Source: a virus. Taken from it: a stretch of DNA of 64,000 nucleotides. The notes beneath the pieces were generated by a model. The model saw only the letters and a list, made by a program, of their open reading frames with translations, did no database searches and was not told where the DNA came from. Below, piece after piece: positions 1-61,000 of the stretch. A program made the position numbers and the translations under genes. How positions within the stretch are numbered: position 1 is the first letter of the stretch; every line of letters begins with the position of its first letter. Where the stretch lies: IMG/VR virus record IMGVR_UViG_3300029845_000007, one strand, 5' to 3'.

Positions 1-942
1 CTTAACAGAATTCATATTAGCTTTAGTCAAAGCATTAGGAGCAAAACTACTACTATAATCCTTTTCTAAACCAAAGTTATTATAGTTATCCTTTAATAAT
101 CTTGTCCTAGAACCAAGAGCTGATTTCTTTAATTCAGGATATTTCTTATATACCTTAGCTCTCACATCAGAACGACCGTGAAGTCCGGCTAATCTAAGAG
201 CATCACGAGCATCAGCTTTAGTAGGAATAGGATAACTACGACCACCACCTGCAAAGTCTTTAGACTTAACACTAGGATAAGGTTTCTTATCTGAACCGTA
301 ATCTTTCTTACGAGATAATCCTCCTAGCTTTTTCTTACCAGTTATTGTTCTCATATTTCTTTTCTTTTTAGTACCATCATCATTAAGACCATTTCTATCT
401 TTAAATGACTCTTGAGCATTAAACACTTTAGAAGGCTTAGCACCTTTCTGAACTAATTCAGCCGGACTATTACCATTAAGTATAGGTTGAGCACTGAATA
501 CTTTAAGTTGCTTAGGAGTAACTTGCACTACTTCACCACCTTCAGCTTCAACACCTGTCTTACCTGCATCAATAACAATACCTCCAGTATTGTGTTTACG
601 TCCTTTAAGAAGAAACGAATCTTTCTTAATAGGAATAGCTGTACCACCCTCGACAATATGTGCTTTCGTTCCTTTATGGGGGAAAGTTCGTACCTTCCCG
701 CCCTTAGATAAGTATTGGCTTAAGAACTGTGACCTCTCTTCTTCGGACATCATGTTCTCATTTTGAGCACTGGCTAAAGCCTGATTGTCTTGTAGGTTTT
801 GAAGACGCTCTTGTCTTAACCTTTCGGCTTGTTCAGCTTTCTTCTTCTTACGATTGCCTATGATACCGCTAACAATACTAGTACCAACAGAAATCGCAGT
901 ACCTATAAATGCTTTAGGTCTTTGTTCATTAATACGTTTCAT
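1..942 (-). CDS. Hypothetical virion-associated protein, truncated at its 3' end by the window edge. The N-terminus reads MKRINEQRPKAFIGTAISVGTSIVSGIIG (a TM-like segment) and is followed by Lys-rich low-complexity sequence.
   Basis: Manual translation of the minus strand. The ATG at 942..940 overlaps the TAA stop (944..942) of the upstream 1808-aa gene as TAATG. The frame stays open to position 1. It is absent from the ORF track because there is no stop inside the window. Confidence 0.5.
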   Translation of the reverse strand, partial: MKRINEQRPKAFIGTAISVGTSIVSGIIGNRKKKKAEQAERLRQERLQNLQDNQALASAQNENMMSEEERSQFLSQYLSKGGKVRTFPHKGTKAHIVEGGTAIPIKKDSFLLKGRKHNTGGIVIDAGKTGVEAEGGEVVQVTPKQLKVFSAQPILNGNSPAELVQKGAKPSKVFNAQESFKDRNGLNDDGTKKKRNMRTITGKKKLGGLSRKKDYGSDKKPYPSVKSKDFAGGGRSYPIPTKADARDALRLAGLHGRSDVRAKVYKKYPELKKSALGSRTRLLKDNYNNFGLEKDYSSSFAPNALTKANMNSVK

Positions 943-3900
943 TATTCTCTATATTTATTAACATAACATTCAATCTTCTTAATCTCTATCTTAGCTGTTC
1001 CGTCATTAATTACAAAACGCACACCTAGATATTTACCATTAATAAGATTGGATTTAAATGGTTCGTAATTCTTATCAACATCAACAGTCAATTTACCAGT
1101 AAGTCTATCTATTGGATAATTAGTAACTACTTCGTTTAGAACACTACGGAAATAATTATAATTCCATTTACCATGTTCATAATAAGGTTTAGCTGTATCG
1201 AAAGTATTACGTTCATTAACAGTAATATCTTCAAGTCTACTTATCGAAGTATTACTAAACAATAGTATCTTATTACCTGCAAAGTTAATGTCGTTAGCTT
1301 TATATAAGTCATAACTTATGTAGTTAAGTACTTTAATAGTATCGTATTCAAGATTGAATAATACATCGACTACCATAGTATTATTGTTGTCTCCTACATA
1401 GAAAGGATTCTTATTAGCAGCTATCTCAAAGTCTGTATATTTAAGATAACTCAAAGGCTTTACGAATCCTAATTGACCTATAATATTCTTCTTGTTGAAG
1501 GAACTAATATACAAATTAGTTTTTGTATTATAAAATCCTCTACATAAATAAGTATGTACACTTATCCAAGTATTAGTGACGAAATTGTAACTAAGGGTAA
1601 AGTCTGAAACATCTCCCATAAAGGAACAAATCAACCGATTATTCTCCTTATCCATTCCCATTAGTATTTGAGTATTACTAGTTAAATACTCATCTAATAT
1701 AGACTGTACTCCGTCACCTAAGTCATTTAAATTCTTCTCATCAAATCTATATAACCTCTTCTTGCTTCTGTCTAAGAATATATAGCCAGCTTCATTACAT
1801 ACGTATGCTTCAAAATCTTGTAGACCACCATATCCTTTTTCACTAGTAAATACCTCTTGATAATCAATATCAAAAGCATCAGGCATTAACATTTGAACAT
1901 CTTTGTCTTTAGTATAAAGCGTATTATCTCTATTAAAGATAAACATTGAATGTTCGCAATGAGCTATAAGATAAGTGCCAATACCAATAACGTTAATGAT
2001 ATCACCTTTATTTTCGCTAATTATCTTATAAGCATTAGGTCTAAATATTCGCCATTTATTCTCTACTGATTCATCACTAATAACATCGCTTCTACGAATA
2101 GTTTGACGGTATTCTGTAACAAAGTTACTATATAATAATTCATTATAATTAATAAATTTCTTACCTGCATAATCAAGATACATACTACTTATTTCAAATG
2201 TATCATTAATAGTAGTAGGCAATAGATGAATCATACGAACATTCTGAACGAAAGAATTATTATCAGTATGAATAGTATAGTATCTTTCATCAGGAGCTGT
2301 TTTAATAGTTTTAGCAAATAATGGATATAGCGAATAATAATTAAGAATTATTCTACTTATAGGAGTATTACCTACTCTTTCACTATCCCAATGTACTCTA
2401 GGGAAATTAGGATAAAGATTAGTATTATCCGTAGCCTTCTTAGGTATTGGGTCAGTAGTATCATAGTATACACCATTACGATTAAATGCATAAACACATG
2501 CTGTCATAAAGTAATAATTATAATTATAGATATAATCTTCATAACCATAATTATAAATATCTCCTGTTGGATTAACATACTTAATATAGCCAAGTGGAAT
2601 AAGGTCTTTATTCTCCGACATATATAAGTTATCACTTATATTAAGTAATAAACCATTTACATAACCTCTACCGTTTGTAGTATAGAATCCTAACTTTAAT
2701 GACTTATTCAAAACAAGATTAACAACAGCTTCTCTACCTGCATTATTATCATCTTTGCTATCAGCCATTATAATAGTAGAACTTTTAATAGCTCTAATAT
2801 CTCCAAATTCTTCTGAAGGATTAGATTGATTGAAATTAGCATCACTACTATAATAGTCAGTAAACATAGGACCTTTATAGGCATTGCCCATAGTATAACG
2901 ACTATCAGTAATAAAGATATTACCGGCACCTGACTTCTTTATAATATCAAATTCAGGATAATAGAAACGAATATTATTAACTTGTTCATTAAATGCAGTA
3001 TTAAAATCATCATCTCTACGTACAGGAACACCTTCACTAACTAATATAGGTTCTGTCTTTTCATAAGATATAAAATATCCTACGAACTCTTTTCTCATAG
3101 GTATGTTGTCAAATAAGAACTCTATCTGATGAATTCCTCTGTGACTAGGATTTCTAGTTCCTCTAAACATACGATTGCCATTATTGTTTTTATAAAGAGC
3201 AATACCATTAGAATTATATTTAGGAAATATATTACAGAATCTTACATTACTAATGCTATCAAATATATTAACTACATCGTGTGCATTATTAGTATTAATA
3301 TTACCATATTGACTTTTATAAGCATCAAATTTAGTCTTAATATCAGATATTAGAGTGTCTTCATTTATATCCATTGTTAATGAAGTATTACCTTCATTAG
3401 CTGTACCTAAACTAATAGTCTCTGAATAACTCATAGTATTAGGAATATTAATACCGTCAGTAATATTACCATTAGGATATACATAATGTACGAAGAAGTT
3501 ATATACGCATTGATTAATTGCATACTTAGCACTATCTGAATAAAATTCTGTATCTTCAGGTTTAGTTTCACTATCTAATATCTTAGGAGAAGCAAATCCA
3601 AAAGCATAACTAATATAACCTCCGTCAGGACCACTAACACGAAGTTCTTTATACTTATCATTATTATGCAGTTCAAGGAACTCACTACCACTAGAACGAA
3701 TACCACCTTCGCTTATTGCTAATACACCGTCTTTACCAAAAGTAGGAATATCAAGAAGTAAACCGTCATAATTACTAATTCCGTCAAGATTAAACTTCTT
3801 ATTCTTTTGGAAACAAATATATAAGTTACCTAATACTCCTTCATAGGCTTTAGTACTTTCAACACTTACTCTATCATAAATAGTATAATCTTCATTACCT

Positions 3901-6368
3901 GTGTAATCATAAGTAGAAACAGTCCTTAGATAATTTATAAATGGAATAACTATCATGAACTCTTTCTCGGCAGTTATAATAGTTTGATTCCCTTCTTCTA
4001 CTGTTTCTTTAATATAACCAACAGGATAAGCCTTTAAGTCAGTAAATGTTTTAGTAGAACTTAAATCTGCACTAAGACTACTTATAACATTAAAGTCAAC
4101 AGTATAACTTTCATCAATATTGAAATCGTCATCTGTTGGTTCTCTATCTACTTTCCATTTATATACTGTTTCATGTATTCCTTCAATTTCGTTAATTAAA
4201 TCTTGTGTAGATTTATTTTCATTGTTGAAATTAACAGATAGATTAGGAAATAATTCATCTATTGTATGTCTACTAGTTTCGCCTTCACTATTAATAATTA
4301 AAATAGCATCTTCTCTACGATGCCAATAACTATCGTCTAATCTACTATATTTAGTAGCAAACATAAACTTATTCTTAGATACATCATATGCAATTCTAAG
4401 TTTATCTCCTTCGGTTAATCCTCCTTCAGCTTGTGTCTTAACATCATTTATTGCTCCCGTAGGATTAATTGTTTCATATTCATCAATAGTATATATAGTT
4501 GAATTAGGAAACTTAGCTTTAATAATATCTAATACTCCTCCATAGTCCACATAAGCTGTTTGAAAAGAACGTCTAAATTTCATTCCTTTATCAACAGGAT
4601 TTCCAGTAGACATATCATATATTTTATAATAAAAGTCAATAGGATTATAACGGTCGTATTTTAATTTATATGTTTCTTCTCCAATAGTAACATTTCCTAA
4701 GTAAAACCACATAGGCTCGATAATTTCTCTAGTATCTATATTTAAGTCAAATTCTTCAATTGATACTACTTTAAAATCGTTACTAAAATCTCTTTGAATA
4801 TTAGGAGCACTATAAGGAGTGCTAGTAAACAAATCATTAGTACGTCCATATCTTACGTAAGGATGACTTACGAATCCTAAACTTACTATACTAGAATATT
4901 TATCAGGATATATCTCATCATAGTAAGTACTTCCGTATCTACTAAATTCTAGTATATACCAATCTTTATCATCAGGTTTAACAACTACGGCAGTAGCAGC
5001 TTCATATAGATTATCTGCATCTTGATAAGAAACATAGAACGGAGTAGTATGACTATCATAATTACTATCTTTATAGAAAGCTCTAATAAAGTCTTGGGAT
5101 GAAATCATTAAACAATAAATACCGTAACTATTCTTACCAATACGAGTAAGGAAGAACTTTCTAGTAACTTCTTTATATTCACTACCGTCACCATAAGCAC
5201 GTCCTTTAATAGTCACTACATATCCTTTATTAATATCAAACGTTCTAGGATTATTAACTATTGATGAAGTTGTAGCTCTAGCAACACTACGTTTCATTAT
5301 AGATTTATTTCTGATAAAATCTTTAACTCGAACTTGTATATTACTAGTATCAATAGAACTTACAAGACTATCAATGTTTTCTTCCTTATAGTTAGCTACA
5401 TACAATCTATTGTTATAGTTACATAAGGTTTTTACATTATATAGATTAAAGAAAGAACTAGTAATATCATCTAGACTAAATGTTTCGTTATAAACATCGT
5501 CTATCGTGATTCTACTAGTTTTAATATCTATATCAGAAGTATTATATACTTTAGTATCTCCCTTTTGAGTATTAATTATATAACCTATTTGATAAGCTGT
5601 ATAATTAAGACCTGAATTATCTATTTGTAACCCTAGTTCGATATTTAAGTTTACCTTTTCAGTATTTAGATTAGTATCTTCTTTAAAAGTAAAGTTTCCT
5701 ATCTTATAGTTAACAGGGAGATTACCGCTACTGTCGTCATAACCAAAACTATTATCTTCGATAGTAGTTTGATTTCCTTTATCCCATACTAATACAGGAG
5801 TTCCAATAGGAAACCAACCAGTATAATCGTTTCCTTCTTTATATCTAATAAAGAAATTATATATTCCTTTATAGATAGTGCTACCTGATACTAACTTGGA
5901 GTTATTAAGATTAGTCTTAGGGATATTAGGAACTAACGTATATTTAATATCGCTTCCACCTTCTAGGTAATTAGGTTTATTAAGATTAATTATCTTTAAT
6001 GGAACTTCTTCATCAGAATTAAGTTCAGTAATAGCAACAATTAATTCATTATTTACATTATAGGTATATGTACCTATAACTTTACCGCCTTGATAATTCC
6101 AATTAGTAGTAACTTCCGTAATAGCTTTAGTAGATTCTTTATATCTTCTAATCTTACTATTATTAGTAAAGATAACTATTTCATCAGAGCAAGAGATAAC
6201 ACCGACTATCTCTTCATTTTCACTTAATGTTATAATTGTCTCGATTGACTGTTCATTCTGAATAGAATTACCGTCACGAGAAACCATAGCATTAACAGCA
6301 TGGGTCATTGAACCATTCTTAATGGATTCATAACCTCCGTCTTTGTTTAACTCCTTAACTATTTCCAT
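942..6368 (-). CDS. Giant virion or tail protein (1808 aa) rich in N, Y and T, with beta-rich fibre or spike-like composition. Function unknown.
   Basis: Uninterrupted 5.4-kb ORF in the structural operon. It is translationally coupled to both neighbours. No recognisable catalytic motif was seen by eye. Confidence 0.8.
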   Translation of the reverse strand: MEIVKELNKDGGYESIKNGSMTHAVNAMVSRDGNSIQNEQSIETIITLSENEEIVGVISCSDEIVIFTNNSKIRRYKESTKAITEVTTNWNYQGGKVIGTYTYNVNNELIVAITELNSDEEVPLKIINLNKPNYLEGGSDIKYTLVPNIPKTNLNNSKLVSGSTIYKGIYNFFIRYKEGNDYTGWFPIGTPVLVWDKGNQTTIEDNSFGYDDSSGNLPVNYKIGNFTFKEDTNLNTEKVNLNIELGLQIDNSGLNYTAYQIGYIINTQKGDTKVYNTSDIDIKTSRITIDDVYNETFSLDDITSSFFNLYNVKTLCNYNNRLYVANYKEENIDSLVSSIDTSNIQVRVKDFIRNKSIMKRSVARATTSSIVNNPRTFDINKGYVVTIKGRAYGDGSEYKEVTRKFFLTRIGKNSYGIYCLMISSQDFIRAFYKDSNYDSHTTPFYVSYQDADNLYEAATAVVVKPDDKDWYILEFSRYGSTYYDEIYPDKYSSIVSLGFVSHPYVRYGRTNDLFTSTPYSAPNIQRDFSNDFKVVSIEEFDLNIDTREIIEPMWFYLGNVTIGEETYKLKYDRYNPIDFYYKIYDMSTGNPVDKGMKFRRSFQTAYVDYGGVLDIIKAKFPNSTIYTIDEYETINPTGAINDVKTQAEGGLTEGDKLRIAYDVSKNKFMFATKYSRLDDSYWHRREDAILIINSEGETSRHTIDELFPNLSVNFNNENKSTQDLINEIEGIHETVYKWKVDREPTDDDFNIDESYTVDFNVISSLSADLSSTKTFTDLKAYPVGYIKETVEEGNQTIITAEKEFMIVIPFINYLRTVSTYDYTGNEDYTIYDRVSVESTKAYEGVLGNLYICFQKNKKFNLDGISNYDGLLLDIPTFGKDGVLAISEGGIRSSGSEFLELHNNDKYKELRVSGPDGGYISYAFGFASPKILDSETKPEDTEFYSDSAKYAINQCVYNFFVHYVYPNGNITDGINIPNTMSYSETISLGTANEGNTSLTMDINEDTLISDIKTKFDAYKSQYGNINTNNAHDVVNIFDSISNVRFCNIFPKYNSNGIALYKNNNGNRMFRGTRNPSHRGIHQIEFLFDNIPMRKEFVGYFISYEKTEPILVSEGVPVRRDDDFNTAFNEQVNNIRFYYPEFDIIKKSGAGNIFITDSRYTMGNAYKGPMFTDYYSSDANFNQSNPSEEFGDIRAIKSSTIIMADSKDDNNAGREAVVNLVLNKSLKLGFYTTNGRGYVNGLLLNISDNLYMSENKDLIPLGYIKYVNPTGDIYNYGYEDYIYNYNYYFMTACVYAFNRNGVYYDTTDPIPKKATDNTNLYPNFPRVHWDSERVGNTPISRIILNYYSLYPLFAKTIKTAPDERYYTIHTDNNSFVQNVRMIHLLPTTINDTFEISSMYLDYAGKKFINYNELLYSNFVTEYRQTIRRSDVISDESVENKWRIFRPNAYKIISENKGDIINVIGIGTYLIAHCEHSMFIFNRDNTLYTKDKDVQMLMPDAFDIDYQEVFTSEKGYGGLQDFEAYVCNEAGYIFLDRSKKRLYRFDEKNLNDLGDGVQSILDEYLTSNTQILMGMDKENNRLICSFMGDVSDFTLSYNFVTNTWISVHTYLCRGFYNTKTNLYISSFNKKNIIGQLGFVKPLSYLKYTDFEIAANKNPFYVGDNNNTMVVDVLFNLEYDTIKVLNYISYDLYKANDINFAGNKILLFSNTSISRLEDITVNERNTFDTAKPYYEHGKWNYNYFRSVLNEVVTNYPIDRLTGKLTVDVDKNYEPFKSNLINGKYLGVRFVINDGTAKIEIKKIECYVNKYRE

Positions 6369-7036
6369 TAGTCTCTAGGTCTAAATGTTGCATTATAAAA
6401 GAACGACGCCCAACCTTTATAGGCATTAGCATCTTGATTTTCATTAATAACAGAAGCTCTTGCTCTGTCACGAGAATCTCTCCATAATAAATATGGATTA
6501 ACTGGCATAGCACCTTGTAGAGAATATACTTGATGTTTAAGTCCTCTACTTAGTAACTTCCACATACAAAACCATTCAAGAGCTTCGATAAGTTTTCCGT
6601 TATCAGGTATAACAGGAATATTACAATGAAAAGTATCACTATATACAGTCTTAACTGTAAGATAGGATACTTTAACAACATCTGTATCAAAGTTTAATTG
6701 AATAGCATTAGCATCACGAAGATAAACGTAATTACGTCCTTCATAGTTTTCAGAATCTATTTCAACAGTACGTTTACTTTCTCGCTCCCTAGCTTTCTCT
6801 CGGTCTTGAGCGAAGTATTCAGTAGTACCGGAAGAGCAACCACAGTTTCCTTTCTTTATGGGGGAAACCTCACACCCGTCTGCATACACTTTAAATGCGT
6901 TCATACAACATGGGAAATAAGCAACTCTATCAACAACTTCAATAGTAGTTTCTTTTTCTTCATATTGAAGAATACCCATTTCATTCATAGCATCTATACA
7001 CCAAGTACCAACTCTAGGTATATAATCGCTACTCAT
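6368..7036 (-). CDS. Hypothetical Cys-rich structural-module protein. Start chosen at the internal ATG 7036 because the longer ORF (to 7177) overlaps the upstream gene.
   Basis: ORF-track entry 6368..7177. The first ATG downstream of the upstream gene's stop (7053) is at 7036..7034. Confidence 0.45.
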   Translation of the reverse strand: MSSDYIPRVGTWCIDAMNEMGILQYEEKETTIEVVDRVAYFPCCMNAFKVYADGCEVSPIKKGNCGCSSGTTEYFAQDREKARERESKRTVEIDSENYEGRNYVYLRDANAIQLNFDTDVVKVSYLTVKTVYSDTFHCNIPVIPDNGKLIEALEWFCMWKLLSRGLKHQVYSLQGAMPVNPYLLWRDSRDRARASVINENQDANAYKGWASFFYNATFRPRD

Positions 7037-7052
7037 AATATTGAAATCATTA

Positions 7053-8030
7053 TCAAGTCTTGCGATAATAGTTTCTATTGAAGATAGGTTTTTGTTCATT
7101 GTTTCTAATATATTTTTGAGTATAACTTGGGTCAAACTTAGAAATAAGAGAGACGCGATTGTTAATATCAGTATCAAGATTTATTATATCTTCTACACTA
7201 TGACATTTTGCAAGTAGTTCAGCATTTGTAACATTCATGTGATTATTTATACCACAAAATTTAAATACTGTCCTATTCTTAACTGCACCGTCAATCATAA
7301 TAACTCTACAAGACCAATCCGAATTATTATAAGATATATATTTAACACCGTCATATTCCTCTCCTTTTGCAATAGCTTCAAGATGTTTCTTTTTATTATA
7401 AGGCGTAAGTCCTTTAATAATAAGTTCTTCTTTATTTCTTCTAGTTTCTACAAAGTTAATACGTTTTCTATGCTTAATAACTTTACCGTCAGCAGTAATA
7501 TGTGATTCAGTTCTTTTTACTCTTTCTATAATAAGGCAACCTATTTTCTTCTCAAACTTATAAATCTTTCCTCTCAATACTTGCCTTCCTATTTCTCCAA
7601 AGAACAGGTAACAATACTTTTTGTATTGTTCTCTTGTAATTAACTTACGCTTCTTTAATACATCTTGTCTTATCTCACAATCTTTTATCTTACGAAGCAC
7701 TCTAAAGTATTGCTTTAGATTACGGTAAAGATTGCCATATCTTAATTGTTTTACATCCGTAAACTTAACATACTTCTCATCTATGGCTTTCTCCATTTTT
7801 TGATTAGTATCTAACTCATCTGTATTCCATTCCCAGTAGTTATATACACATACATCAAATATGGCTTCAACAGCATTTCTATTTTGTTCAATAGAGTATT
7901 TAATTCGATAAAGCAAAGATTTATATCTGACTATATTGTGAGACACAAGGTCGTACTCCTCTTCACTTGTCTCTATAAAATGTGTATACATATTACGTAT
8001 GTCATATCTATCTATTGCATTTACTTTCAT
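7053..8030 (-). CDS. Hypothetical strongly basic (K/R-rich) protein of 325 aa. It is possibly nucleic-acid binding.
   Basis: ORF with a 4-nt overlap with the next gene. Lys/Arg-rich composition. No defined nuclease motif was recognised. Confidence 0.55.
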   Translation of the reverse strand: MKVNAIDRYDIRNMYTHFIETSEEEYDLVSHNIVRYKSLLYRIKYSIEQNRNAVEAIFDVCVYNYWEWNTDELDTNQKMEKAIDEKYVKFTDVKQLRYGNLYRNLKQYFRVLRKIKDCEIRQDVLKKRKLITREQYKKYCYLFFGEIGRQVLRGKIYKFEKKIGCLIIERVKRTESHITADGKVIKHRKRINFVETRRNKEELIIKGLTPYNKKKHLEAIAKGEEYDGVKYISYNNSDWSCRVIMIDGAVKNRTVFKFCGINNHMNVTNAELLAKCHSVEDIINLDTDINNRVSLISKFDPSYTQKYIRNNEQKPIFNRNYYRKT

Positions 8031-8987: not shown

Positions 8988-9007
8988 TTCCCCCATAAAG
9001 GAGCGTG
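8988..9007 (+). repeat. Copy of the dispersed GC-rich element TTCCCCCATAAAGGAGCGTG, here intergenic.
   Basis: Exact match to the family consensus (see finding 1). Confidence 0.8.
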
Positions 9008-10325: not shown

Positions 10326-10329
10326 AATA

Positions 10330-11204: not shown

Positions 11205-11231
11205 AACTTATTCTTTAGTAGGTTTATAATA

Positions 11232-11897: not shown

Positions 11898-12095
11898 CCC
11901 TGCACCATTATAGCCTTCAGGAACAACTTTAACTTTTTCAATTACTTACATAATAAATAAGGTTTAGATTAATAAATTAAGAATATCTTATAGTAGCTAC
12001 TATACACTCATAACAAAGAATACTATTATAAGTTCAGACATTAATCTATTTTAGCTATAAACAATAATTTTATGAAAAAAGTTAAGTATCTCGTG

Positions 12096-47005: not shown

Positions 47006-47007
47006 TA

Positions 47008-48903: not shown

Positions 48904-48945
48904 AATTGTTAATTTATAGTTAAAAACTCATTTTCGGCTTCTAAA

Positions 48946-49008: not shown

Positions 49009-49059
49009 TTTGAAATTCGTAACTGACTGATAATGACCGATTTAACATAAAATTAACAC

Positions 49060-52996: not shown

Positions 52997-53317
52997 ATGG
53001 ATAAGAAAGAATTTACTAAATTGTTTAAAGAGTTACAGAAGATACAACTTAGTCTATTGTATAGTACTAAACTCTCTAGTGACCTTTATACTAATTGCAA
53101 TCTTAATAATACTTCTTATATTAGTATGTATCTATTTGTTCTTGATATTAATAGAAATATTGATGAAACACATAGTTACAATCTTTATAGCAATGATAGT
53201 ATTGATAAGAATAGAGCTGTTGTAAATGAAATTAAGCAAAAGGTTAAACAATTCACAACTCCTTTAAGGGGGAATAAAGCGAAGCGAAGCGGAGCGTCAG
53301 ATACTCCAATTAAGTAA
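52997..53317 (+). CDS. Hypothetical protein (106 aa). Its C-terminal 15 aa are encoded by a copy of the GC-rich element, so the true stop may differ.
   Basis: ORF. The repeat copy lies at 53261..53300. Confidence 0.3.
   Translation: MDKKEFTKLFKELQKIQLSLLYSTKLSSDLYTNCNLNNTSYISMYLFVLDINRNIDETHSYNLYSNDSIDKNRAVVNEIKQKVKQFTTPLRGNKAKRSGASDTPIK
53261..53300 (-). repeat. Extended copy of the GC-rich element in reverse orientation: CCTTTAAGGGGGAATAAAGCGAAGCGAAGCGGAGCGTCAG.
   Basis: Reverse complement of the 42388..42433 copy. Confidence 0.8.
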
Positions 53318-53779: not shown

Positions 53780-54032
53780 TATGATTGTAGATTTAAAACA
53801 ATGTGTTAATCCTGATAGTACTTTTGATGTATATTTTGAAGGACTTAAAGCTGTTATTTCTCATGATTTATGTGTTAATACTTATTATTGTATTATCGTA
53901 GATGTTCATAGTGATAGATGTTGTGAAATTACTCCATTACCTAGAATTATGAATACTGATAAATATAAGATATTCCCCCGTAAAGGAATGTGTTGCGTAC
54001 AGTATAGTGTTAACCAAATAGTCAAACCTTAA
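53780..54032 (+). CDS. Small Cys-rich protein (84 aa).
   Basis: The ATG at 53780 directly follows the upstream stop. The ORF-track entry 53679..54032 is the same frame extended upstream. Confidence 0.35.
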
Positions 54033-54036: not shown

Positions 54037-54402
54037 ATGGGATTAAGTTTCAAACTATCAGCGGTAAATGAGGAACAGAAAATTCCTCGTGAGAAAGTAA
54101 TAATGCAGATTGTTACTGGAACTATCGTTCTACATGATAACATGTATAAGTTTAAACCTAAAGATAGTGATGAATTTATTACGTTATCTGAACGTTCGTA
54201 CTCATGTAAAGGTTTTAAGACAATATATACTCGTGCATTAGATAATTATGGTAGACCTACTAAAATTGTTAGATGTACTGATGCTTATTGTGTTATGCCT
54301 AGCTGTTATATTCCATTTAAGATAGGATTACCTGTTAAGGGTTATATACTTAAATGTCGTGATAATATTGATAGATTCTTACTAAAATGCAATGAATTTT
54401 GA
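54037..54402 (+). CDS. Hypothetical protein (121 aa).
   Basis: ORF. Confidence 0.5.
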   Translation: MGLSFKLSAVNEEQKIPREKVIMQIVTGTIVLHDNMYKFKPKDSDEFITLSERSYSCKGFKTIYTRALDNYGRPTKIVRCTDAYCVMPSCYIPFKIGLPVKGYILKCRDNIDRFLLKCNEF

Positions 54403-54883
54403 AAAGTTTGATGATGCTAAGAAAGACGATAAAGTCTTAAATAGTTTTACTCGTGACCAAAAGATTGCTTATGAAAACCTAGTAGCTTTTATTGAGAAAG
54501 GTTATGTTGCAGGTGATTATAAACGTGCTCTTATTGGCTCGGCAGGTACAGGAAAAACATATATGATACGTGAAGTAATTAGACGATGCGGATTATCTAA
54601 ATCCGTTATTGGTCTTGCAGCTCCTACACATAAAGCTGCTCGTGTACTTCGTGCATCTACTGGATATTCTACGTCTACTGTGGCTAGTGATTTAGGTTTA
54701 AGACTTAATACTGATGTTACTGATTTTGATATTAATAATCCTCCTTTTGACCCATTAGCTGAAAAGAAGATTAAGCAATATAAGTTATATATTGTTGATG
54801 AAGCGTCTATGATTGGTATTAATCTTAAAACTCTTATAGAAAGAGAATGTGAACAGTTTGGTTGTATGCTTATTTATATGGGT
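54392..54883 (+). CDS. SF1 (RecD/Dda/Pif1-like) DNA helicase, exon 1. It carries Walker A GSAGTGKT and Walker B LYIVDEASM.
   Basis: The motifs are read directly. The exon ends in ...ATG GGT, whose last nucleotide U is the group I 5' splice site. Confidence 0.7.
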
Positions 54884-56049
54884 AAATAGTTATTGCCCAG
54901 TTTAAACTCTTCTAATTGCTGGAAACTCGTGAAGGTAATAGTACTACAACATAAGTTGAAAAACTAAGTGTGAATGTTAGAAAAACTATTATTATATGAC
55001 AATCAGCAGCGAAGTCTCTAAATTATGTTCATTTACATAATAAGAGAAACGTTCATCGACTATCCCGTAAGGGAGTACAATTCTATGGAATTGGAAACGG
55101 AGAGAGTTGTATATTTGCAATTTACTCCTTATATTTACATAAATTTTTAAAATGTAAATATTATGAGCAAAAAAGAAACTCCAAAAATGTATGGTTTAGA
55201 ACATAAGTTAAATTCTAAGTGTGTTTATATTCATTTTATTAAATCTATTAATATTCCTATTTATATAGGAGAAGGAAATGTACAAAGAGCTTTTGATTTT
55301 ACTAATAGAAATAATAAATGGAAAGAACTAGTTAGCAATCTTAATGATGTTCATGTTGAAATAGTTGCTATTGATATTAATAAAGAAGAATGTGTAGAAA
55401 TAGAAAAGCAGCTAATAAAACTATATAAAGAAAGAGGATTTGAACTTGTTAATTGTAATAATGGAGGTAGTTGTATAGGAACTTTTGGAGAAGATAATTA
55501 TTTTTATAATAAACATTTGTTTGGTAAAGACAATGGTAATTATGGAAATAAATATTCTAAAAATCCTTTATCCATTGAAGTTATTCAGTTAGATATATTT
55601 GGAAATATTATTAAGAAGTGGAGTTCTGCACAAGAAGCAGAAGAAATAGGTGGATATATTGCTAGTTGTATTAATAGTTGTTGTAATGGTAAACGTCAAC
55701 TACACAATAATTATCAATGGATATTTGCTTATAATTATAATCCTAATAAATCTTATGAATATATTCCTAAAGGAACTTCTATGAGAATTTATTTAGCTAT
55801 TGGTATAAGAGATAATAAATCTTATATTCATGGTATATATAATTCTAGTAATGAACTTACTAATGAAGGATTTAATCCTAAACTAGTTCAACAAGTTGTT
55901 ACTGGTTATAAAAAGTCTCATAAAGGTTTTGCTTTTGTTGATTTCTTTAGATTAACTAAAGACCAACAAGAAAAATATAAAGAACAAGTTATTGCAAAAT
56001 TATATAGCTAAGATATAGTCAGACTATTATAGAAATATAGTAGGTTATG
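54884..56049 (+). mobile_element. Group I self-splicing intron (1166 nt) interrupting the helicase gene. It carries a GIY-YIG homing endonuclease ORF.
   Basis: Splicing at 54883|56050 rebuilds helicase motif III as GDNYQLQPV. The P1 helix pairs exon TGGGU with intron GCCCA (intron nt 12–16) through a U.G wobble at the splice site. The P10 helix pairs 3' exon GAUAAC with intron GUUAUU immediately 5' of the guide sequence. The intron ends in G (omega G at 56049). Confidence 0.7.
55163..56011 (+). CDS. GIY-YIG homing endonuclease with a C-terminal NUMOD3-like DNA-binding motif (282 aa).
   Basis: The segment CVYIHF...PIYIGEG has the conserved Arg and Glu downstream. SAQEAEEIGGYIASCINSCCNGKRQLHNNYQWIF matches a NUMOD3 motif. 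Asn/Lys-rich, T4 Seg/I-Tev-like composition. Confidence 0.75.
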   Translation: MSKKETPKMYGLEHKLNSKCVYIHFIKSINIPIYIGEGNVQRAFDFTNRNNKWKELVSNLNDVHVEIVAIDINKEECVEIEKQLIKLYKERGFELVNCNNGGSCIGTFGEDNYFYNKHLFGKDNGNYGNKYSKNPLSIEVIQLDIFGNIIKKWSSAQEAEEIGGYIASCINSCCNGKRQLHNNYQWIFAYNYNPNKSYEYIPKGTSMRIYLAIGIRDNKSYIHGIYNSSNELTNEGFNPKLVQQVVTGYKKSHKGFAFVDFFRLTKDQQEKYKEQVIAKLYS

Positions 56050-57015
56050 GATAACTATCAACTTCAACCAGTTAAAGAATCTCGTTCACGTTGTTTTGAT
56101 AATGTTAAGTTTTATACTCTTAGACAGATTGTTAGACAAGAAGAAGATAATCCTGTTAGTGAGTTATTAAAGATACTAAGAAAAGATATTGATAATAGGA
56201 GTTGGAAATTCCTAGAATATATCAATAAAAACAGATATGCTTTCGATTCAACTCAAACTAAAGGATATTATACTTGTGGTGCATACGAGTTTCAATCTCT
56301 TGTAATAGACGGATTTTATAATGAAGAGTTTACTAGAGATGTTGATACTTGTCGATTAATAACTTATACTAATAAATCTGTATCTGAATGGAATAAATTT
56401 ATTCGTAACAATATCATCGAAGGTAGTGATAAAGCAATTCTAACTCGTAATGATTTAGTAATGTCTTATAATACTTTTGTTGATGAGTTTAAAGATACTA
56501 TTATTGTAAATTCTGAAGATTATATAATACATGATATTAAGAATTTTACTAATAAAGATGAAATCTTTGGATTCAATGTTACGTTCATTCAAGTTAATGG
56601 TGGTAATAGAACTAAACCTTTATTTGTAGTAGACCATTCTAATTTAAATAATGTTATGCTTTATTATAAGTTAGGTGAAACTTATATTCAAAATGCAATT
56701 AATGCAGAGAAATATAATAGAAGTAAGCGTTGGAAGGAATACTATGACTTTAGAGAGAGGAACTTGTTACTAGTTAACTTATTAGATAGGTCTACTGGTA
56801 AGATTAAGTTTAGTCGTGACTTAGATTATGGATTTGCTCTTACAGCTAATAAAGCTCAAGGAAGTACTTATTTTGATGTATATGTAGATATAAATGATAT
56901 TGTATTTGATATGCGTACTGGTAATCCGTGGGGAAATATAGATGAAACTCTTCGTAGATTATATACTGCTTGTAGTAGATGCAAAAATCGTTTATATTTG
57001 TGTTACGGTAAATAA
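56050..57015 (+). CDS. SF1 DNA helicase, exon 2. It carries motif III (G)DNYQLQPV, motif V ALTANKAQGSTY and motif VI YTACSRCKNRL.
   Basis: The motifs are read directly. It is in frame with exon 1 after intron removal, giving a 486-aa product. Confidence 0.7.
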   Translation, partial: DNYQLQPVKESRSRCFDNVKFYTLRQIVRQEEDNPVSELLKILRKDIDNRSWKFLEYINKNRYAFDSTQTKGYYTCGAYEFQSLVIDGFYNEEFTRDVDTCRLITYTNKSVSEWNKFIRNNIIEGSDKAILTRNDLVMSYNTFVDEFKDTIIVNSEDYIIHDIKNFTNKDEIFGFNVTFIQVNGGNRTKPLFVVDHSNLNNVMLYYKLGETYIQNAINAEKYNRSKRWKEYYDFRERNLLLVNLLDRSTGKIKFSRDLDYGFALTANKAQGSTYFDVYVDINDIVFDMRTGNPWGNIDETLRRLYTACSRCKNRLYLCYGK

Positions 57016-57028: not shown

Positions 57029-59299
57029 ATGAGTTCTATGTGTTATGATGTCGAAGTAACTAGAAATTACTTCTCGGTAGTATTTGTTGATTTACGTAGT
57101 TATCTTAAAACATTTTCTGATTGTGTTGATAATGAGGGAAAAGCTATTCCTATTATTGATAAACTTAGTGTTACAGAGATAAAGAAACGTTTAGAAACAA
57201 TACCTAAGAAACGTTTTGTTTTATATGAAGATGATGATAGTGATTTATTTAATCTATTATATTGGTTAATACAGAAGGCAGATTACTTCGGTTATAATAA
57301 TCGTAAGTACGACCGCTTAATGTTAAGTGCATTATTAATGTATTATAATCAATTTGATAAACCTAGTAAACTTATTACATTTCTATATGAAACATCACAG
57401 AGAGTTATTCGTAATTCTAATAATGATACTCTTTGGACTGATAACTTCACTTCTCTTATACTGCGTAATAACGTGGCATTTCGAGACTTGGATTTATTCC
57501 AAATATTTAGGCTAGACCATTTTCATAAAAGTCTCAAACAGACTTCTATTAATATTAAATGGTATAATCTGAAAGAGTATACTATGCCACCTATTGGTGA
57601 CTTAGATAGACATTATTACCATGAGCGACTTCCCGAAGCTAAAAGCATGACAGATAGAGAACTTAATATCCATTATCGTAATGTGTTTGAAAGATTTATA
57701 CCTAAAGAATATCTTCAAGAAATGGCTGATTATAATGACAATGATGTTTATATTGTTGCCGAACTAATTAGAATGAATCAAGAAGAAGTTCTTCTAAGGT
57801 ATCGTATTAGTGAAGAATATAAGGTAGATGTATTCTCTGCAAGTAGAAGTACGATAGCTGATAAAGTTATTGTTAAGCTATATAGTAAGTTTACTGGTCT
57901 GCATCCTAAAGCCTTCATTGATACTAAGACAATACGTAGGAAAATCGTAGTTTCCGAAATTTTGTCAGATAAAATCGCATTTTCCACGCCTGAATTGAAC
58001 GATATTTTGTCAGACATACGTTCGCTAACCCTACGTGGGGAAAAGAGCGAATTTGACAGGGAATTTACCTTCATGGGCACGTCATACACTATCGCAACAG
58101 GAGGTTTACACTCAAACGAGATTCCGAACATTTATCGTAGTTCTGCTGATTATTCAGGTGCTACTGATATTACTATTGGTAATCCTTATGATAGTAATGG
58201 CAATATTGGAGTTAGTACTTCTGATATATATATTTGTGATTTTGATATTAATTCAATGTATCCTAATATTATTAGAAGTCTTAAAGTATGTCAGAAACAT
58301 CTACTTCCTAAGGCATGGTTTCGTATAGCTGATACTATTGTCGATGAACGACTAGAACATAAACATTTATCCAAAGATAAATCTCTTGATAGTAAAGAGA
58401 GAGATAAACATGCTACTGCTGCTGCTTGTCTAAAGATTGTAGCAAATGCTGGTATATTTGGTAAAATGGGTAGTGAACAATCTTTCTTGTGTGATAAGAA
58501 AGCAATGTATCAAGTTACTATTAATGGGCAATTATTTCTACTAATGTTAATAGAGAAACTTGAACTTGCAGGCATTCATATAATAAGTGCTAATACTGAC
58601 GGTATTGTTTCTATAATACCAAAAAATAAGTTTGAATTATATTGTAATATTTGTCACGAATGGGAGAAAGTAGTTGGATTGACAGGTGAATTTACTCCAT
58701 ATACTAAGTATGTTACAGAAGGAGTAAATAGTTATCTTACTGTAAAACCTAATAATGGTAGAAAATTCAAAGGTAGAATGAATCCTAAGATGTTCTTAGA
58801 GGATTTATCTAAAGGATATAATTCTCCTATTGTAGCTAAATGTGTTACTGAATACTTTATTAACGGTACTCCTGTTATGGAAACTCTTCGTAATGCTAAA
58901 TCTATTCTTGATTTCTGTCGTACTCAAAATGTTAATCATAAGTATAGACTAGAGTTTACTCACGTTGTAGACGGAAAGATAAGAACAGATGTGGTGCAGA
59001 GGAATACAAGGTTTTACATCTCCTCTACGGGGGGAACCCTCATGAAGGTTGAGAGTATAGGCTGGAACGATAATGGTGAAGAACAAGTTAAAAAGAGTTC
59101 TTTATGTGCAGGTCAACGTGTTTCTATATGTAATACTGTTGATGATACTGATATATCTGAACTAAATGTTAATTACTTATATTATTATAATGAAGCTATG
59201 GCTATTATTGAACCAATAGAGCAAAGTCGTAATAATAAAGGTAAAGGTAAACGTTTAGTTAAGAAATACTATGGAATGAGAAATACTTTGTTTGATTGA
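57029..59299 (+). CDS. Family B DNA polymerase with an N-terminal 3'-5' exonuclease domain.
   Basis: Exo I motif CYDVEVT, Y-GG motif SYTIATGG, motif A DFDINSMYPNI, motif B KIVANAGIFGKMG and motif C ISANTDGI. The start was chosen at the ATG at 57029 (MSSMCYDVEV). The longer ORF-track start at 56942 would overlap helicase exon 2. Confidence 0.75.
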   Translation: MSSMCYDVEVTRNYFSVVFVDLRSYLKTFSDCVDNEGKAIPIIDKLSVTEIKKRLETIPKKRFVLYEDDDSDLFNLLYWLIQKADYFGYNNRKYDRLMLSALLMYYNQFDKPSKLITFLYETSQRVIRNSNNDTLWTDNFTSLILRNNVAFRDLDLFQIFRLDHFHKSLKQTSINIKWYNLKEYTMPPIGDLDRHYYHERLPEAKSMTDRELNIHYRNVFERFIPKEYLQEMADYNDNDVYIVAELIRMNQEEVLLRYRISEEYKVDVFSASRSTIADKVIVKLYSKFTGLHPKAFIDTKTIRRKIVVSEILSDKIAFSTPELNDILSDIRSLTLRGEKSEFDREFTFMGTSYTIATGGLHSNEIPNIYRSSADYSGATDITIGNPYDSNGNIGVSTSDIYICDFDINSMYPNIIRSLKVCQKHLLPKAWFRIADTIVDERLEHKHLSKDKSLDSKERDKHATAAACLKIVANAGIFGKMGSEQSFLCDKKAMYQVTINGQLFLLMLIEKLELAGIHIISANTDGIVSIIPKNKFELYCNICHEWEKVVGLTGEFTPYTKYVTEGVNSYLTVKPNNGRKFKGRMNPKMFLEDLSKGYNSPIVAKCVTEYFINGTPVMETLRNAKSILDFCRTQNVNHKYRLEFTHVVDGKIRTDVVQRNTRFYISSTGGTLMKVESIGWNDNGEEQVKKSSLCAGQRVSICNTVDDTDISELNVNYLYYYNEAMAIIEPIEQSRNNKGKGKRLVKKYYGMRNTLFD

Positions 59300-59537: not shown

Positions 59538-61000
59538 ATGATGTAACTGATATTTATAATGAAGCTGCTAATAAATGGTCTGATAACAAAGGTGTGGGTA
59601 GTGTTATTCTATCCGAACCACTAAGTGTAATGAACTTTGTTACAATGGTGTTAGATAAAATGGTAGCTAAAACTCCTGATTTAACGTCTCTTATTATAAC
59701 AGAGACAATGGAAGATAGAGCTAACATTACTTATTATCTTGACAACACTTCTGAACTAAAGGACATTCATAAACAATTAATTACTGATAAGAAATGTCTT
59801 ATACTTACTCGTGAATATGTAGAGCGTTCTCCATATAAACCTAGTCCTAGTAGTCATAAAGATGTTCTTATTACTATTAATGTTAAGAAGTTCCGAAAGA
59901 TTGCAGAGAAGTATAATGGTAATTACTTTAAGTTTAAACTACTTGCTACTAATGCTATTGATAGTGTTGCTGATAATGCTGTACTTATGTATAAGTATGC
60001 ACCTAAAGTATATGAAATTAATTATGCTCACTTAATCAATCGTTCTATTCATTCCCCCATAAAGGAGTACCAAAAAGGTGTTGTCCTAACTGATGCTGAT
60101 AGAATCTATTACGATAGATGTAGCCAATATATTAATGAAAGTGTTACTATATTTGGTAGTTTCGATAAGTTAGAAGAATGTCGTACTGGTAATCCTAGAC
60201 TAAATATTGCAGCTGAAACTTGTAGATTGCAAGTAGCGGAAAGTAATGGTTGGTCAGCTAAAATGGATATGACTGATGCTATGTGTCGTAAGATAGATGA
60301 ACTATATAATCCTAGTTCTTTAATTGAGAGAGTTAATCAAACTTATAACATTATCAGAGAAAGAACTAAGATAGTAACTGATAATATTGTTAAGTTAGAT
60401 GCTATACTTGATATAGTTAAGGAAAATATAGGCAAGAGAATACTAATTATTTCAAAGAATGGAGTATTTGCCAGTAAAGTAACAGAATATCTAAATGCTA
60501 ATATAAAGTATGAGGGTAAATCTATTATGACTAATGGTGAGATATTCCAAACTGGAATAAGTATATTACAGTATGATTATTGCGGAAACTATCATAACGA
60601 TATGGAAGGAATACAGGCTTATGACAAAAACGGAAAACCTAAAGTATATAAATCAGGAGCTAAAGTCGGACAGCCTGTAATCATAAAAGCTCAAGCCCAA
60701 AGAACGCGAAATTTGGAACTGTTTAATGACGACTATATGAAAGTATTGTCGGCAAATAATTCTATTGATACGAGCTTTAAAGGAGTTGTAGACGTTGTAA
60801 TTTTCACGTCACCTCTTTGTAGCTCCATACGAGACTTAAAATATCGAATACCTAATCTATCTTTTAGTTCTGTACCTAACATTATATATAAGATATATTG
60901 TCGAGGTACGAACGAAGAGAAGAAGTTAATAGAGACGAAAGGAGGAAAAGACTATGAAATAGTTAAAGATAGTGAAATTGATTTCATAATAGGAGAATAA
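59534..61000 (+). CDS. Replication-module protein of unknown function (488 aa).
   Basis: ORF. No clear catalytic motif was identified by eye. Confidence 0.6.
   Translation: MNDVTDIYNEAANKWSDNKGVGSVILSEPLSVMNFVTMVLDKMVAKTPDLTSLIITETMEDRANITYYLDNTSELKDIHKQLITDKKCLILTREYVERSPYKPSPSSHKDVLITINVKKFRKIAEKYNGNYFKFKLLATNAIDSVADNAVLMYKYAPKVYEINYAHLINRSIHSPIKEYQKGVVLTDADRIYYDRCSQYINESVTIFGSFDKLEECRTGNPRLNIAAETCRLQVAESNGWSAKMDMTDAMCRKIDELYNPSSLIERVNQTYNIIRERTKIVTDNIVKLDAILDIVKENIGKRILIISKNGVFASKVTEYLNANIKYEGKSIMTNGEIFQTGISILQYDYCGNYHNDMEGIQAYDKNGKPKVYKSGAKVGQPVIIKAQAQRTRNLELFNDDYMKVLSANNSIDTSFKGVVDVVIFTSPLCSSIRDLKYRIPNLSFSSVPNIIYKIYCRGTNEEKKLIETKGGKDYEIVKDSEIDFIIGE

Follow-up and report, generated by a model that had tools for sequence, protein, structure and literature searches.

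A phage-specific DNA word forms an evenly spaced series on each strand of crAss-like phage genomes

The window analysed here, a stretch of 64,000 nt from IMG/VR record IMGVR_UViG_3300029845_000007, is Jahgtovirus DNA (crAss-like, Intestiviridae). Among the proteins encoded by the phage are RecT, a PD-(D/E)XK nuclease, a RecD/Dda-like helicase of SF1 and a Gam-like protein, together with DNA ligase, HNH endonucleases and a DnaG-type primase; no T7-type polymerase is annotated among these phages. Scattered through the window is an asymmetric, GC-rich DNA word of ~16–18 nt, T-T-CCCCC-R-TA-R-AGG-A-G. The pattern TTCCCCCRTARAGGAG, with up to two mismatches, matched 15 times, against 0.00 matches in 100 dinucleotide-preserving shuffles. 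A weight-matrix scan gave a clean split into two classes, 20 strong copies (at least 14 bits) and 3 weak ones (10–13 bits), where 0 were expected, and the same matrix found 0.1 copies in the shuffled related genome cr107_1. The preliminary description of a dispersed element far in excess of chance is thus borne out by both counts. The strong copies, followed by the three weak ones, are:

669–684, − strand: motif copy (30 bits), sense, in a − strand ORF running off the window start; FPHKG
1611–1626, + strand: degenerate copy (17.7 bits, TCTCCC), antisense in a 1808-aa ORF
6851–6866, − strand: motif copy, sense, tail ring protein 1 gene; SPIKKG
8988–9003, + strand: motif copy (32.6 bits), intergenic, adjoining a GC-rich hairpin
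12159–12174, − strand: motif copy spanning the last codons of ORF 12156–12467; SPIKE, then stop
17838–17853, + strand: left arm of an intergenic inverted pair; its complement abuts an ATG at 17838
17875–17890, − strand: right arm of this pair, hairpin-capable
27924–27939, − strand: weaker copy (17 bits), sense, 1153-aa ORF
28147–28162, + strand: motif copy, antisense; shares the 1153-aa ORF with the preceding copy, to which it is inverted at a distance of 212 nt; PLWGN
32361–32376, + strand: motif copy, antisense, ORF 32040–32693; SFKGD
36422–36437, + strand: motif copy, antisense, gene after the portal gene; SSMGE
36943–36958, − strand: copy (21 bits) in the intergenic gap that separates the portal gene from the gene after it
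40007–40022, − strand: copy (20 bits), sense, large terminase gene
42388–42421, + strand: GCTYC pentamer repeats (42388–42405), then a motif copy (42406–42421) whose complement contains the annotated ATG (42414–42412) of the downstream − strand gene
44412–44427, + strand: antisense copy (33 bits), 15 nt upstream of the ATG (44396) of the PD-(D/E)XK nuclease gene
49875–49924, + strand: intergenic; GCTCGC direct repeats, a motif copy (49897–49912), then GTGATTGCTGT
53259–53296, − strand: motif copy (53259–53274) with CGCTN pentamer repeats (53278–53296) ahead of it on the same strand; antisense, 3′ end of ORF 52997–53317
53973–53988, + strand: motif copy, sense, small ORF; FPRKG
59020–59035, − strand: motif copy, antisense, family B DNA polymerase gene; SSTGG
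60052–60067, + strand: motif copy, sense, SNF2-like helicase gene; SPIKEY
38848–38863, + strand: weak copy (13.4 bits)
24166–24181, + strand: weak copy (11.2 bits), possibly a chance match
31724–31739, − strand: weak copy (10.3 bits)

The coordinates given in the preliminary description were recovered within a few bases, except for the site at 55060, which holds only CTATCCCGTAAGGGAG and scores below 9 bits. The copies at 1611–1626 (+) and 12159–12174 (−) had been omitted from it. Its account of longer shared segments was confirmed, with a common 5′ extension GCTCCGCTTCGCT at 42388 and 53278–53296 and a common 3′ extension, GTGATTGCTGT, at 42423 and 49914, as were the ATG-abutting inverted pair at 17838–17890 and the copy 15 nt ahead of an ATG. 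In that pair, the + strand has G–T pairs and the gene strand has A–C mismatches. Two of the poorer copies have stronger orthologues in cr107_1 and crAss002, full-strength for 1611–1626 and of 18 bits for 31724–31739.

The copies encode five different peptides (FPHKG, SPIKKG, SPIKEY, FPRKG and PLWGN) in two orientations and several frames. Use of all three reading frames, as first claimed, was a slight overstatement, because the motif's own TAA or TAG closes one sense frame. Between crAss002 and cr107_1, the fixed motif positions diverge at 5 of 351 sites (1.4%) and the flanks at 7.3%, and the core persists even at a flank identity of only 70–80%. Of the 15 coding copies that could be mapped, 7 coincide with a Rudgehvirus copy of like orientation (0.02 expected per site by chance), and many copies keep identical position and orientation in three genera; the helicase copy, for example, aligns column for column with its counterparts in Rudgehvirus and p-crAssphage. 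The position at 36422–36437 is kept down to lineages of 65% capsid identity, within hypervariable coding sequence. In the primase gene the position is kept and the motif is offset from the reading frame by one base (PLRGN versus ILYGGS), and here, as with the five peptides, a conserved-peptide reading fails. Turnover is also visible: the copy at 36943–36958 is present or absent in sister lineages via clustered substitutions, and that at 40007–40022 is missing from a more distant lineage. The preliminary description had proposed a check of relatives for insertion or deletion polymorphism; all differences between related genomes at the copies are substitutions, never insertions or deletions. Since gain and loss occur by substitution, the word is not recently mobile. 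The signal is DNA and not a peptide, as first proposed, and the word is maintained by nucleotide-level selection wherever the coding sequence can accommodate it.

Complete relatives carry 30–34 copies per genome with a near-equal strand split, and the genus-specific variants of the word have a common core, CCCC(C/T)-R-TA-R-A-R-G. The bacterial genomes scanned gave scattered single matches only, and the word is not present there as a repeat; viral matches fell mostly in 90–97 kb contigs, often two or three per stretch. The copies are instances of one genome-wide DNA signal that is specific to the phage. Like the preliminary description, which knew of no such element in crAss-like phages, we did not find it in the literature searched.

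The most informative property of the word, and a new finding, is that each strand carries its own, independent series of evenly spaced copies, about one per 5.5–6 kb. In four genomes, with strand counts of 17/17, 14/17, 15/15 and 18/14, the minimum same-strand gaps were 2006, 2007, 2424 and 1909 nt and the coefficient of variation of the gaps was 0.45–0.47; the observed minimum gap or coefficient was reached in 0 of 20,000 random placements. Copies on opposite strands may be separated by as little as 40–800 bp, all 30 close adjacent pairs in the four genomes (8/8, 7/7, 8/8 and 7/7) are inverted, and the two series are mutually independent at 1–2 kb. Compared with a process that merely enforces a minimum distance, the additional regularity is marginal in two of the four genomes (P = 0.056 and 0.17), and crAss002 has a 13.8-kb stretch without a + strand copy; coverage is therefore not strict. 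The unrelated dispersed motifs of crAss001 and cr127_1 have the same layout. Copy orientation is unrelated to gene direction, sense and antisense copies being equal in number, and two thirds of the copies lie inside genes, many of them midway in very long ones. Intergenic sequence is nonetheless enriched (9 of 29 copies, vs 7.3%), and copies also occur near stop codons. The per-strand series had been overlooked in the preliminary description.

A similar combination of traits is known from the uptake sequences (USS/DUS) of Pasteurellaceae and Neisseriaceae, which are short asymmetric words that are massively over-represented without genomic orientation bias, are about two thirds intragenic in a few tolerated frames at poorly conserved residues, show a non-coding excess, include some inverted pairs and are significantly evenly spaced (PMC1939737, PMC2817400). 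They are absent from recently acquired genes (PMC1939737, PMC2817400), and here the swapped tail-fibre module carries no motif copy. However, USS belong to competent bacteria, whose uptake machinery reads either orientation, whereas this word is found in phages only and its regularity is per strand, which implies a directional reader.

The best explanation, which we put forward tentatively, is that the word is a directional coverage signal, with priming as the favoured mechanism. The layout fits a site that is recognised in one orientation only, by a machine tracking along the DNA of the whole genome in either direction. Such a machine would come upon a copy in the right orientation after a few kb at most; another one close by on the same strand would add nothing, so none would evolve. 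Given the high information content of the word, its absence from bacteria and its lineage-specific variants, the reader is probably phage-encoded and co-evolving with it. A phage-specific recognition or binding element, one of the possibilities raised at the outset, is still the right general class.

As the single most likely mechanism we suggest, with low confidence, promoter-like priming in replication. During replication or recombination of phage DNA, the word would serve strand-specific RNA synthesis as a loading or start site of promoter-like character, yielding primers or short transcripts on whichever strand is the lagging template, and would not drive mRNA transcription. Specificity would be set by the variable C-rich 5′ half, with melting and initiation taking place in the conserved TA-R-A / GGAG 3′ half. 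In its architecture the word appears to resemble promoters of single-subunit RNA polymerases: T7-type promoters are likewise about 20 bp long, asymmetric and highly conserved, with specificity in a variable half and a conserved start half rich in TA and purines. CCCCCA-TAAAGG aligns with T3 CCCTCACTAAAGG (P about 0.01 vs shuffles; 11 of 13 core positions match), and the cr127_1 element starts with TATAAT. The element at 49875–49924, which heads the + strand (replication) gene block and adjoins a 1-kb AT-rich repeat region, and the convergent pairs upstream of both p-crAssphage repL genes may also favour priming. On the other side, DnaG-type primases normally require only about 3 nt. The T3 resemblance is weak, and T3 promoters, which have no minimum spacing (down to 342 nt apart), all point with the genes; moreover, the phages lack an annotated polymerase of this type. 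The crAss virion RNA polymerase does transcribe single-stranded templates, but early transcripts of the phi14:2 virion polymerase have no common upstream motif, and that enzyme is believed to be kept inhibited until it is packaged (10.1101/2020.03.07.982082). The layout is equally compatible with any directional coverage signal, including nuclease control and polar roadblocks.

Nuclease control would make the word a Chi-like self tag, which we regard as unlikely. A helicase–nuclease, phage-encoded or from the host, would recognise the word on one strand, and on entering phage DNA at an end or break would switch from degradation to recombination; phage DNA would therefore be spared or repaired, and untagged host or competing-phage DNA destroyed. 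Copies in both orientations everywhere, evenly spaced per strand and without ties to gene direction, are what a Chi-like, directional site recognised on single strands by a DNA-tracking enzyme would need, and the density of the word, about one copy per 6 kb in each orientation, is close to that of E. coli Chi sites in the correct orientation. The absence of the word as a bacterial repeat, the lineage-specific variants, as kin discrimination would predict, and the set of genes from RecT to the Gam-like protein are also in line with such a tag. However, known Chi sites are 5–8 nt long, belong to the host and are skewed with replication direction, whereas this word is 16–28 nt, phage-lineage-specific and unskewed. 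We know of no Chi-recognising phage enzyme, the phage's Gam-type end protector would make Chi less necessary, and the layout is the sole specific observation in support of a tag.

A dispersed operator or roadblock is, in our view, rather unlikely. A monomeric phage DNA-binding protein would occupy the asymmetric word genome-wide and block RNA polymerase in an orientation-dependent manner, silencing stray antisense transcription along with sense transcription, for instance in a carrier or plasmid-like state of crAss phages. The models are P1 C1, whose dispersed asymmetric operators can be likened to this word, and the cluster A mycobacteriophage repressor; the sites of these systems are 13–17 bp long. 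An asymmetric 16–18 bp site in ~30 copies per genome with lineage-specific variants, the intergenic enrichment and the copies near stop codons would all suit an operator. Cluster A stoperators offer a precedent, with more than 20 asymmetric 13-mers across the phage genome that block transcription orientation-dependently and are read by a monomeric phage protein of lineage-dependent specificity (PMC9283540), and a phage–plasmid lifestyle has been proposed for p-crAssphage (PMC10983915). Yet stoperators are oriented with transcription and lie in promoters or short intergenic gaps (PMC9283540), whereas this word is oriented independently of genes and mostly lies deep within them. No repressor candidate was found, and even spacing on each strand is not what simple operator binding would lead one to expect.

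Conventional phage-specific mRNA promoters or terminators, serving either the crAss RNA polymerase or host polymerase with a phage factor, are improbable. In length, information content and asymmetry the word is promoter-like, the + strand block has a sense copy 53 nt ahead of its first ORF, and inverted pairs occupy terminator-like positions at operon ends. Nevertheless, half of the copies oppose the genes, most are intragenic, divergent and convergent junctions show no consistent arrangement, and single copies have no local secondary structure; the gene promoter of the preliminary description is not upheld. The middle promoters known from crAss phages resemble those of sigma-70, lie between genes and face in the sense direction (10.1101/2020.03.07.982082).

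Phage nickase recognition sites can be considered quite improbable. Packaged DNA of T5, phiKMV-like phages and phage tf carries localized single-strand interruptions. As in tf, LUZ24 and PaP3, where a consensus at fixed positions is common, with variation, to related phages and may co-evolve with its enzyme (PMC3517423), the word keeps its positions; its layout is strand-specific, and the phage has DNA ligase and HNH endonucleases. But described nick sites all lie on one strand (PMC3517423), whereas here the strands are equal, and opposite-strand copies 37–130 nt apart would risk double-strand breaks.

Very improbable are a miniature mobile repeat inserting in frame, a conserved peptide or a translation-initiation cassette: a GC-rich repeat, intragenic and in both orientations in an AT-rich genome, and AAGGAG followed by GTG at 49897 and 42406, had suggested them, but they are contradicted by the orthologous positions across genera, turnover by substitution and the five peptides with a frame shift at one site. 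The cassette was rejected because 32 of 33 genes in the window start without a Shine–Dalgarno sequence; half of the copies are antisense, and GTGATTGCTGT follows 2 of the 20.

The window comes from a crAss-like phage that falls in Jahgtovirus, a genus of the Intestiviridae. It is ~94–97% identical in parts to the uncultured phage cr107_1 and ~88% identical overall to Bacteroides phage crAss002, and its orientation is reversed relative to both records; its genes lie on the minus strand up to ~46.3 kb and on the plus strand from ~46.7 kb. Dispersed over both strands is an asymmetric GC-rich word of 16–28 nt (~30 bits), TT-CCCCC-R-TA-R-AGG-AG. Searching the window for TTCCCCCRTARAGGAG with up to two mismatches gave 15 matches against 0.00 in 100 dinucleotide-preserving shuffles, which bears out the preliminary description's claim of a word that recurs where it should hardly do so. 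The logo built from 29 cr107_1 copies is informative at T, T, CCCCC, R, T, A, R, A, G, G, A and G, followed by a weak y and r. A weight-matrix scan of the window found 20 copies of at least 14 bits and 3 weak ones, compared with 0.1 when the genome of the related cr107_1 was shuffled; the matrices derive from the same genomes that were scanned, and the scores still fall into two clean classes. All the coordinates first reported were found again, with 55060 reduced to a faint resemblance, and that list was incomplete by two copies (1611 and 12159). Its account of the extensions on the 5' and 3' sides, of the copies adjacent to start codons and of the inverted pair (17838–17890) was confirmed.

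The new finding is the layout: the copies are evenly spaced on each strand separately. Four genomes illustrate it, and since the three Jahgtovirus genomes (the window included) are not independent, the independent support is that of three genera plus two additional families.

Strand layout of the word in four genomes (copies per strand; minimum same-strand gap; coefficient of variation, CV, of same-strand gaps; inverted pairs among adjacent copies <1 kb apart)
cr107_1: 17 plus and 17 minus; 2006 nt; 0.47; 8 of 8
crAss002: 14 plus and 17 minus; 2007 nt; 0.47; 7 of 7
Rudgehvirus: 15 plus and 15 minus; 2424 nt; 0.47; 8 of 8
crAssphage: 18 plus and 14 minus; 1909 nt; 0.45; 7 of 7

Same-strand gaps average 5.5–6.1 kb in these genomes, and none of 20,000 random placements reached the observed minimum gap or CV. 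The case for spacing more regular than a minimum distance alone would impose is no more than moderate: compared with a pure minimum-distance process, the CV gives P = 0.056 (cr107_1), 0.031 (crAss002), 0.17 (Rudgehvirus) and 0.006 (crAssphage). The window by itself follows the rule too, with no same-strand gap below 2006 nt and inversion in each of its five close pairs. Convergent and divergent pairs are about equally numerous. Gaps measured without regard to strand are far less regular (CV 0.67–0.76), and rotating one strand's series against the other reproduced the observed number of cross-strand neighbours within 1–2 kb, so that each series is placed independently of the other. Only pairs <150 nt apart are in excess (Rudgehvirus P = 0.0014), and these are located in intergenic DNA, which best tolerates copies on both strands. 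The word is about as often sense as antisense, and orientation is unrelated to gene direction. Coding sequence holds 20 of 29 copies; the 9 that are intergenic or at gene boundaries exceed the 7.3% expected (p = 1.5e-4), and the median distance to a stop codon is 197 nt for the copies versus 444 nt for random positions (P = 0.007).

Inside genes, the word reads SPIKE, FPHKG or FPRKG in the sense orientation and PLWG or PLRG, SFMG, SSMG or SSTG, or LLYGG in the antisense orientation. In the primase gene, its position is kept but the word is one base off frame, giving PLRGN in Jahgtovirus and ILYGGS in crAssphage, a shift that peptide constraint is unable to produce. The multiple peptides, the two orientations and this frame-shifted copy uphold the earlier proposal of a DNA-level signal as opposed to a protein motif. 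Across 27 orthologous copies in crAss002 and cr107_1, 5 of the 351 bases at fixed positions have changed (1.4%), while the flanks diverge by 7.0–7.6% (about 7.3%). The 14 nt directly 3' of the core diverge by 13.5%, about twice this background, which reflects either copies lying in unconstrained protein segments or a mutation- or recombination-prone neighbourhood. In 55 related loci selected for similar capsids, the fixed bases persist alongside flanks of only 70–83% identity, and variation is limited to the R positions and the 3' edge. Polymorphism pooled over these loci looks unselected at first view, an impression created by the R positions, where change is tolerated, and by two sites occupied in some lineages and empty in others. 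To judge from these substitution patterns, selection preserves the word at the nucleotide level; a word of ~30 bits is beyond chance, and each copy must therefore have been made and kept by selection.

Related forms recur in other genera, with ~30 copies of TTGnTGTAAnCT-CCCCTGTARAGGAG in Rudgehvirus jaberico and ~32 copies of GGGTaGAC-CCCCCGTRGAGG-ATGGAA in prototypical crAssphage. Local protein alignment allowed 15 Jahgtovirus coding copies to be mapped into Rudgehvirus, and for 7 of them a co-oriented copy was found at the mapped place, mostly within 5 nt (chance 0.02 per site). In the SNF2-like helicase gene, the word occupies identical alignment columns in three genera, in a poorly conserved stretch. 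The copy in the gene after the portal gene is kept as AGCTCCCCCGTAGAAGAG, surrounded by hypervariable low-complexity coding sequence, in lineages as distant as 65% capsid protein identity. These alignments argue that the word is old and fixed in position.

The same strand layout was found with other words in two further families. Phage crAss001 (Steigviridae) carries 27 exact copies of CTCCAGAAG in 100 kb versus 0.9 expected, with a minimum same-strand gap of 1537 nt, a CV of 0.61 (P = 0.003) and inversion of all four close pairs. In cr127_1 (Crevaviridae), an unrelated ~40-nt element, TATAATGGCCACAAGGGCGAGAGGTGTTCCGAAAT, is present in 10 copies, five per strand (minimum same-strand gap 7.8 kb; CV 0.34, P = 0.006; close pairs inverted in 3 of 3). 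The strand layout is thus general in the order Crassvirales. A dispersed motif, CCAGAGTAA, was also seen in cr1_1, where it includes a hairpin at 30864/30905.

The layout is the signature of a directional signal required at intervals on each strand, although all our inference is from sequence alone. A second copy is never found nearby on the same strand, so such a copy would bring no benefit; opposite-strand copies are free to adjoin, and thus the two orientations would serve different needs. The reader of the signal would travel the full length of the genome in either direction, independently of gene transcription; eligible candidates are replication forks, helicase-nucleases that process DNA ends and polymerases that a polar roadblock can stop. 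The restriction of the word to phages and its genus-level variants around a common core point to a phage-encoded reader that co-evolves with it. As a tentative choice, we favour a promoter-like start site for priming in replication or recombination, for which several observations can be listed, none of them strong. The word combines a variable C-rich half with a conserved TA-R-A / GGAG half and matches the T3 promoter core at 11 of 13 positions (P about 0.01); the cr127_1 element starts with TATAAT. Moreover, window copy 49897 adjoins a 1-kb AT-rich repeat region heading the replication genes, convergent pairs lie upstream of both crAssphage repL genes, and the crAss virion polymerase favours single-stranded templates (10.1101/2020.03.07.982082).

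A wider reading, which we consider doubtful, is that all Crassvirales share an unrecognised genome-wide, strand-specific tagging system, in which family-specific words (CCCCC-R-TA-R-AGGAG in Intestiviridae, CTCCAGAAG in crAss001 and the 40-nt element in cr127_1) would form two independent even series served by a directional, fast-evolving phage reader. Such a system could, for example, programme by sequence the priming of discontinuous DNA synthesis, possibly via the giant RNAi-type polymerase, or act as a phage-private Chi that distinguishes own DNA from that of the host or of rival phages.

Four alternatives to priming were weighed against known systems, and since the word fails at least one defining feature of every family tested, it is filed under none. 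A Chi-like self tag would be a directional word needed in both orientations; Chi itself, however, is a host word of 5–8 nt with a replication skew, whereas ours is 16–28 nt long, phage-lineage-specific and equal in strand counts. The closest analogue in distribution is the bacterial uptake signal (USS/DUS), which likewise occurs equally on both strands, in coding and non-coding DNA, with even spacing. USS show no orientation bias, are mostly intragenic at tolerated residues with a non-coding excess, form occasional inverted pairs, are evenly spaced and are missing from recently acquired genes (PMC1939737, PMC2817400). They belong, however, to naturally competent bacteria and are read in either orientation, while the bacterial matches listed for the word are single and scattered.

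Dispersed operators or roadblock sites are the second alternative. Stoperators and other dispersed asymmetric operators are the closest phage systems, with >20 asymmetric sites of 13–17 bp genome-wide. Stoperator orientation correlates with the direction of transcription (PMC9283540), whereas that of the word is unrelated to genes, and stoperators lie in promoters or short intergenic spaces, unlike the word, for which only 9 of 29 copies are in comparable positions (though enriched). Pfam scans of neighbouring ORFs yielded no candidate for a cognate repressor. As for ordinary promoters or terminators, T7-type promoters resemble the word in being conserved asymmetric elements of ~20 bp in many copies, but their copies are all gene-directed and upstream of genes (as in the T3 control), in contrast to the even sense and antisense copies and largely coding location found here. 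No single-subunit RNA polymerase is annotated in cr107_1 or crAss002, just the giant two-barrel polymerase, and a scan for a sigma-70-like promoter consensus stayed at shuffle level. Nick sites are the fourth alternative; the localized nick sites of T5, phiKMV and tf all fall on one strand (PMC3517423), whereas the strand counts of the word are 17/17, 15/15 and 18/14.

The remaining readings were rejected. Pairing of inverted copies over long range is opposed by complementarity that stops at the core in pairs 80–800 nt apart and by opposite-strand distances at 1–2 kb that are as expected for independent placement. A REP/BIME-type palindrome or RNA hairpin is likewise discounted: flanking positions pair just as often as their base frequencies predict, folding energies are close to those of controls, and neither Rfam nor a tRNA scan gave a match in the window. 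A Shine-Dalgarno translation-initiation cassette, suggested in the preliminary description, does not hold, given that half of the copies are antisense, that AAGGAG-N-GTGATTGCTGT (AAGGAG-N-GTG) occurs on only 2 copies and that 32 of 33 window gene starts lack a Shine-Dalgarno-like sequence within 20 nt upstream; the last fits the largely Shine-Dalgarno-independent initiation of Bacteroidota. Nor did the suggested miniature mobile repeat inserting in frame (MITE or Rickettsia-type element) survive, as no clean insertion was seen and all differences between genomes are equal-length substitutions: sites with and without a copy differ by several clustered changes (e.g. TTTCCCCCTTAAAGAG versus TTACCCTATCGAATGG, flanks 80% identical). 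A host repeat is dismissed by a scan of 185,579 bacterial and archaeal species genomes, which gave at least 120 matching stretches, 120 of them with one match each and those among the matches listed scattered over unrelated taxa; matches in viral contigs were mostly in contigs of 90–97 kb, often two or three per stretch. Recombination breakpoints did not convincingly coincide with copies when identity was profiled against cr107_1 and crAss002. What stands of the initial proposals is the general class of a phage-specific recognition or binding element, and searches by name, topic and sequence strings found no description of the word in open-access papers and preprints.

To our knowledge, crAss-like phages are the most abundant human gut viruses, and their cis-acting signals and replication are almost uncharted. 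The word offers a tractable experimental handle, with ~30 defined sites per genome and two cultured systems, crAss002 and crAss001. Should its reader prove to be the replisome or the giant virion polymerase, the word would show how crAss phages programme replication or transcription; if it were a self tag, it would represent a new form of self versus non-self discrimination between phages. The word can also serve as a practical marker to recognise and sub-type Intestiviridae contigs.

Genes around 6368–8719 were searched with Pfam. The gene at 8027–8719, among those called IHF-like in older records, matched crAss tail ring protein 2, and that at 6368–7099 (tail-tubular in older annotation) matched ring protein 1; neither is thus likely to encode the DNA-binding protein that reads the word. 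The IHF-annotated gene at 7053–8030 had no Pfam match.

Three or four tandem pentamers of the GCTYC or CGCTN type stand before some copies, on the same strand as the copy:

window 42388–42405, pentamer array
window 53278–53296, pentamer array
window 49875–49892, pentamer array
sequence L127, 28040–28200, pentamer array
sequence L127, 6040–6060, pentamer array

Such arrays were seen in Jahgtovirus as well as crAssphage, most of them between genes or at gene ends, and the pentamer is similar to the GCTCC start of the motif variant of deeper lineages.

Other features of the window were recorded alongside. Directly upstream of copy 49897 and the first ORF of the plus-strand block, ~1 kb of AT-rich non-coding DNA (48900–49890) is dense in direct repeats, with TTACACAGATTTGCGTGTAA found both near 48948 and near 48990 and a degenerate tandem array at 49187–49320; this region is a candidate origin or early control region. 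A 30-nt tandem repeat in three copies (46758–46876) lies within a small plus-strand ORF (46748–47008). A helicase gene is interrupted:

window 54392–57015, split SF1 (RecD/Dda-like) helicase gene, with an AAA_30 part (54392–54889) and a UvrD_C_2 part (56047–57015)

Its two parts are separated by an ORF with an I-HmuI/NUMOD-like homing-endonuclease domain (55163–56011), and the segment at 54.9–56.05 kb, missing in cr107_1 and crAss002, looks like an intron or homing-endonuclease insertion. At the DNA level, the module at 9900–17300 is nearly without homology to cr107_1 or crAss002 and is thus probably a swapped tail-fibre or receptor-binding cassette. It includes a 1661-aa ORF (12543–17528), which contains no strong copy of the word, and an internal 147-nt duplication at 13001 and 16817.
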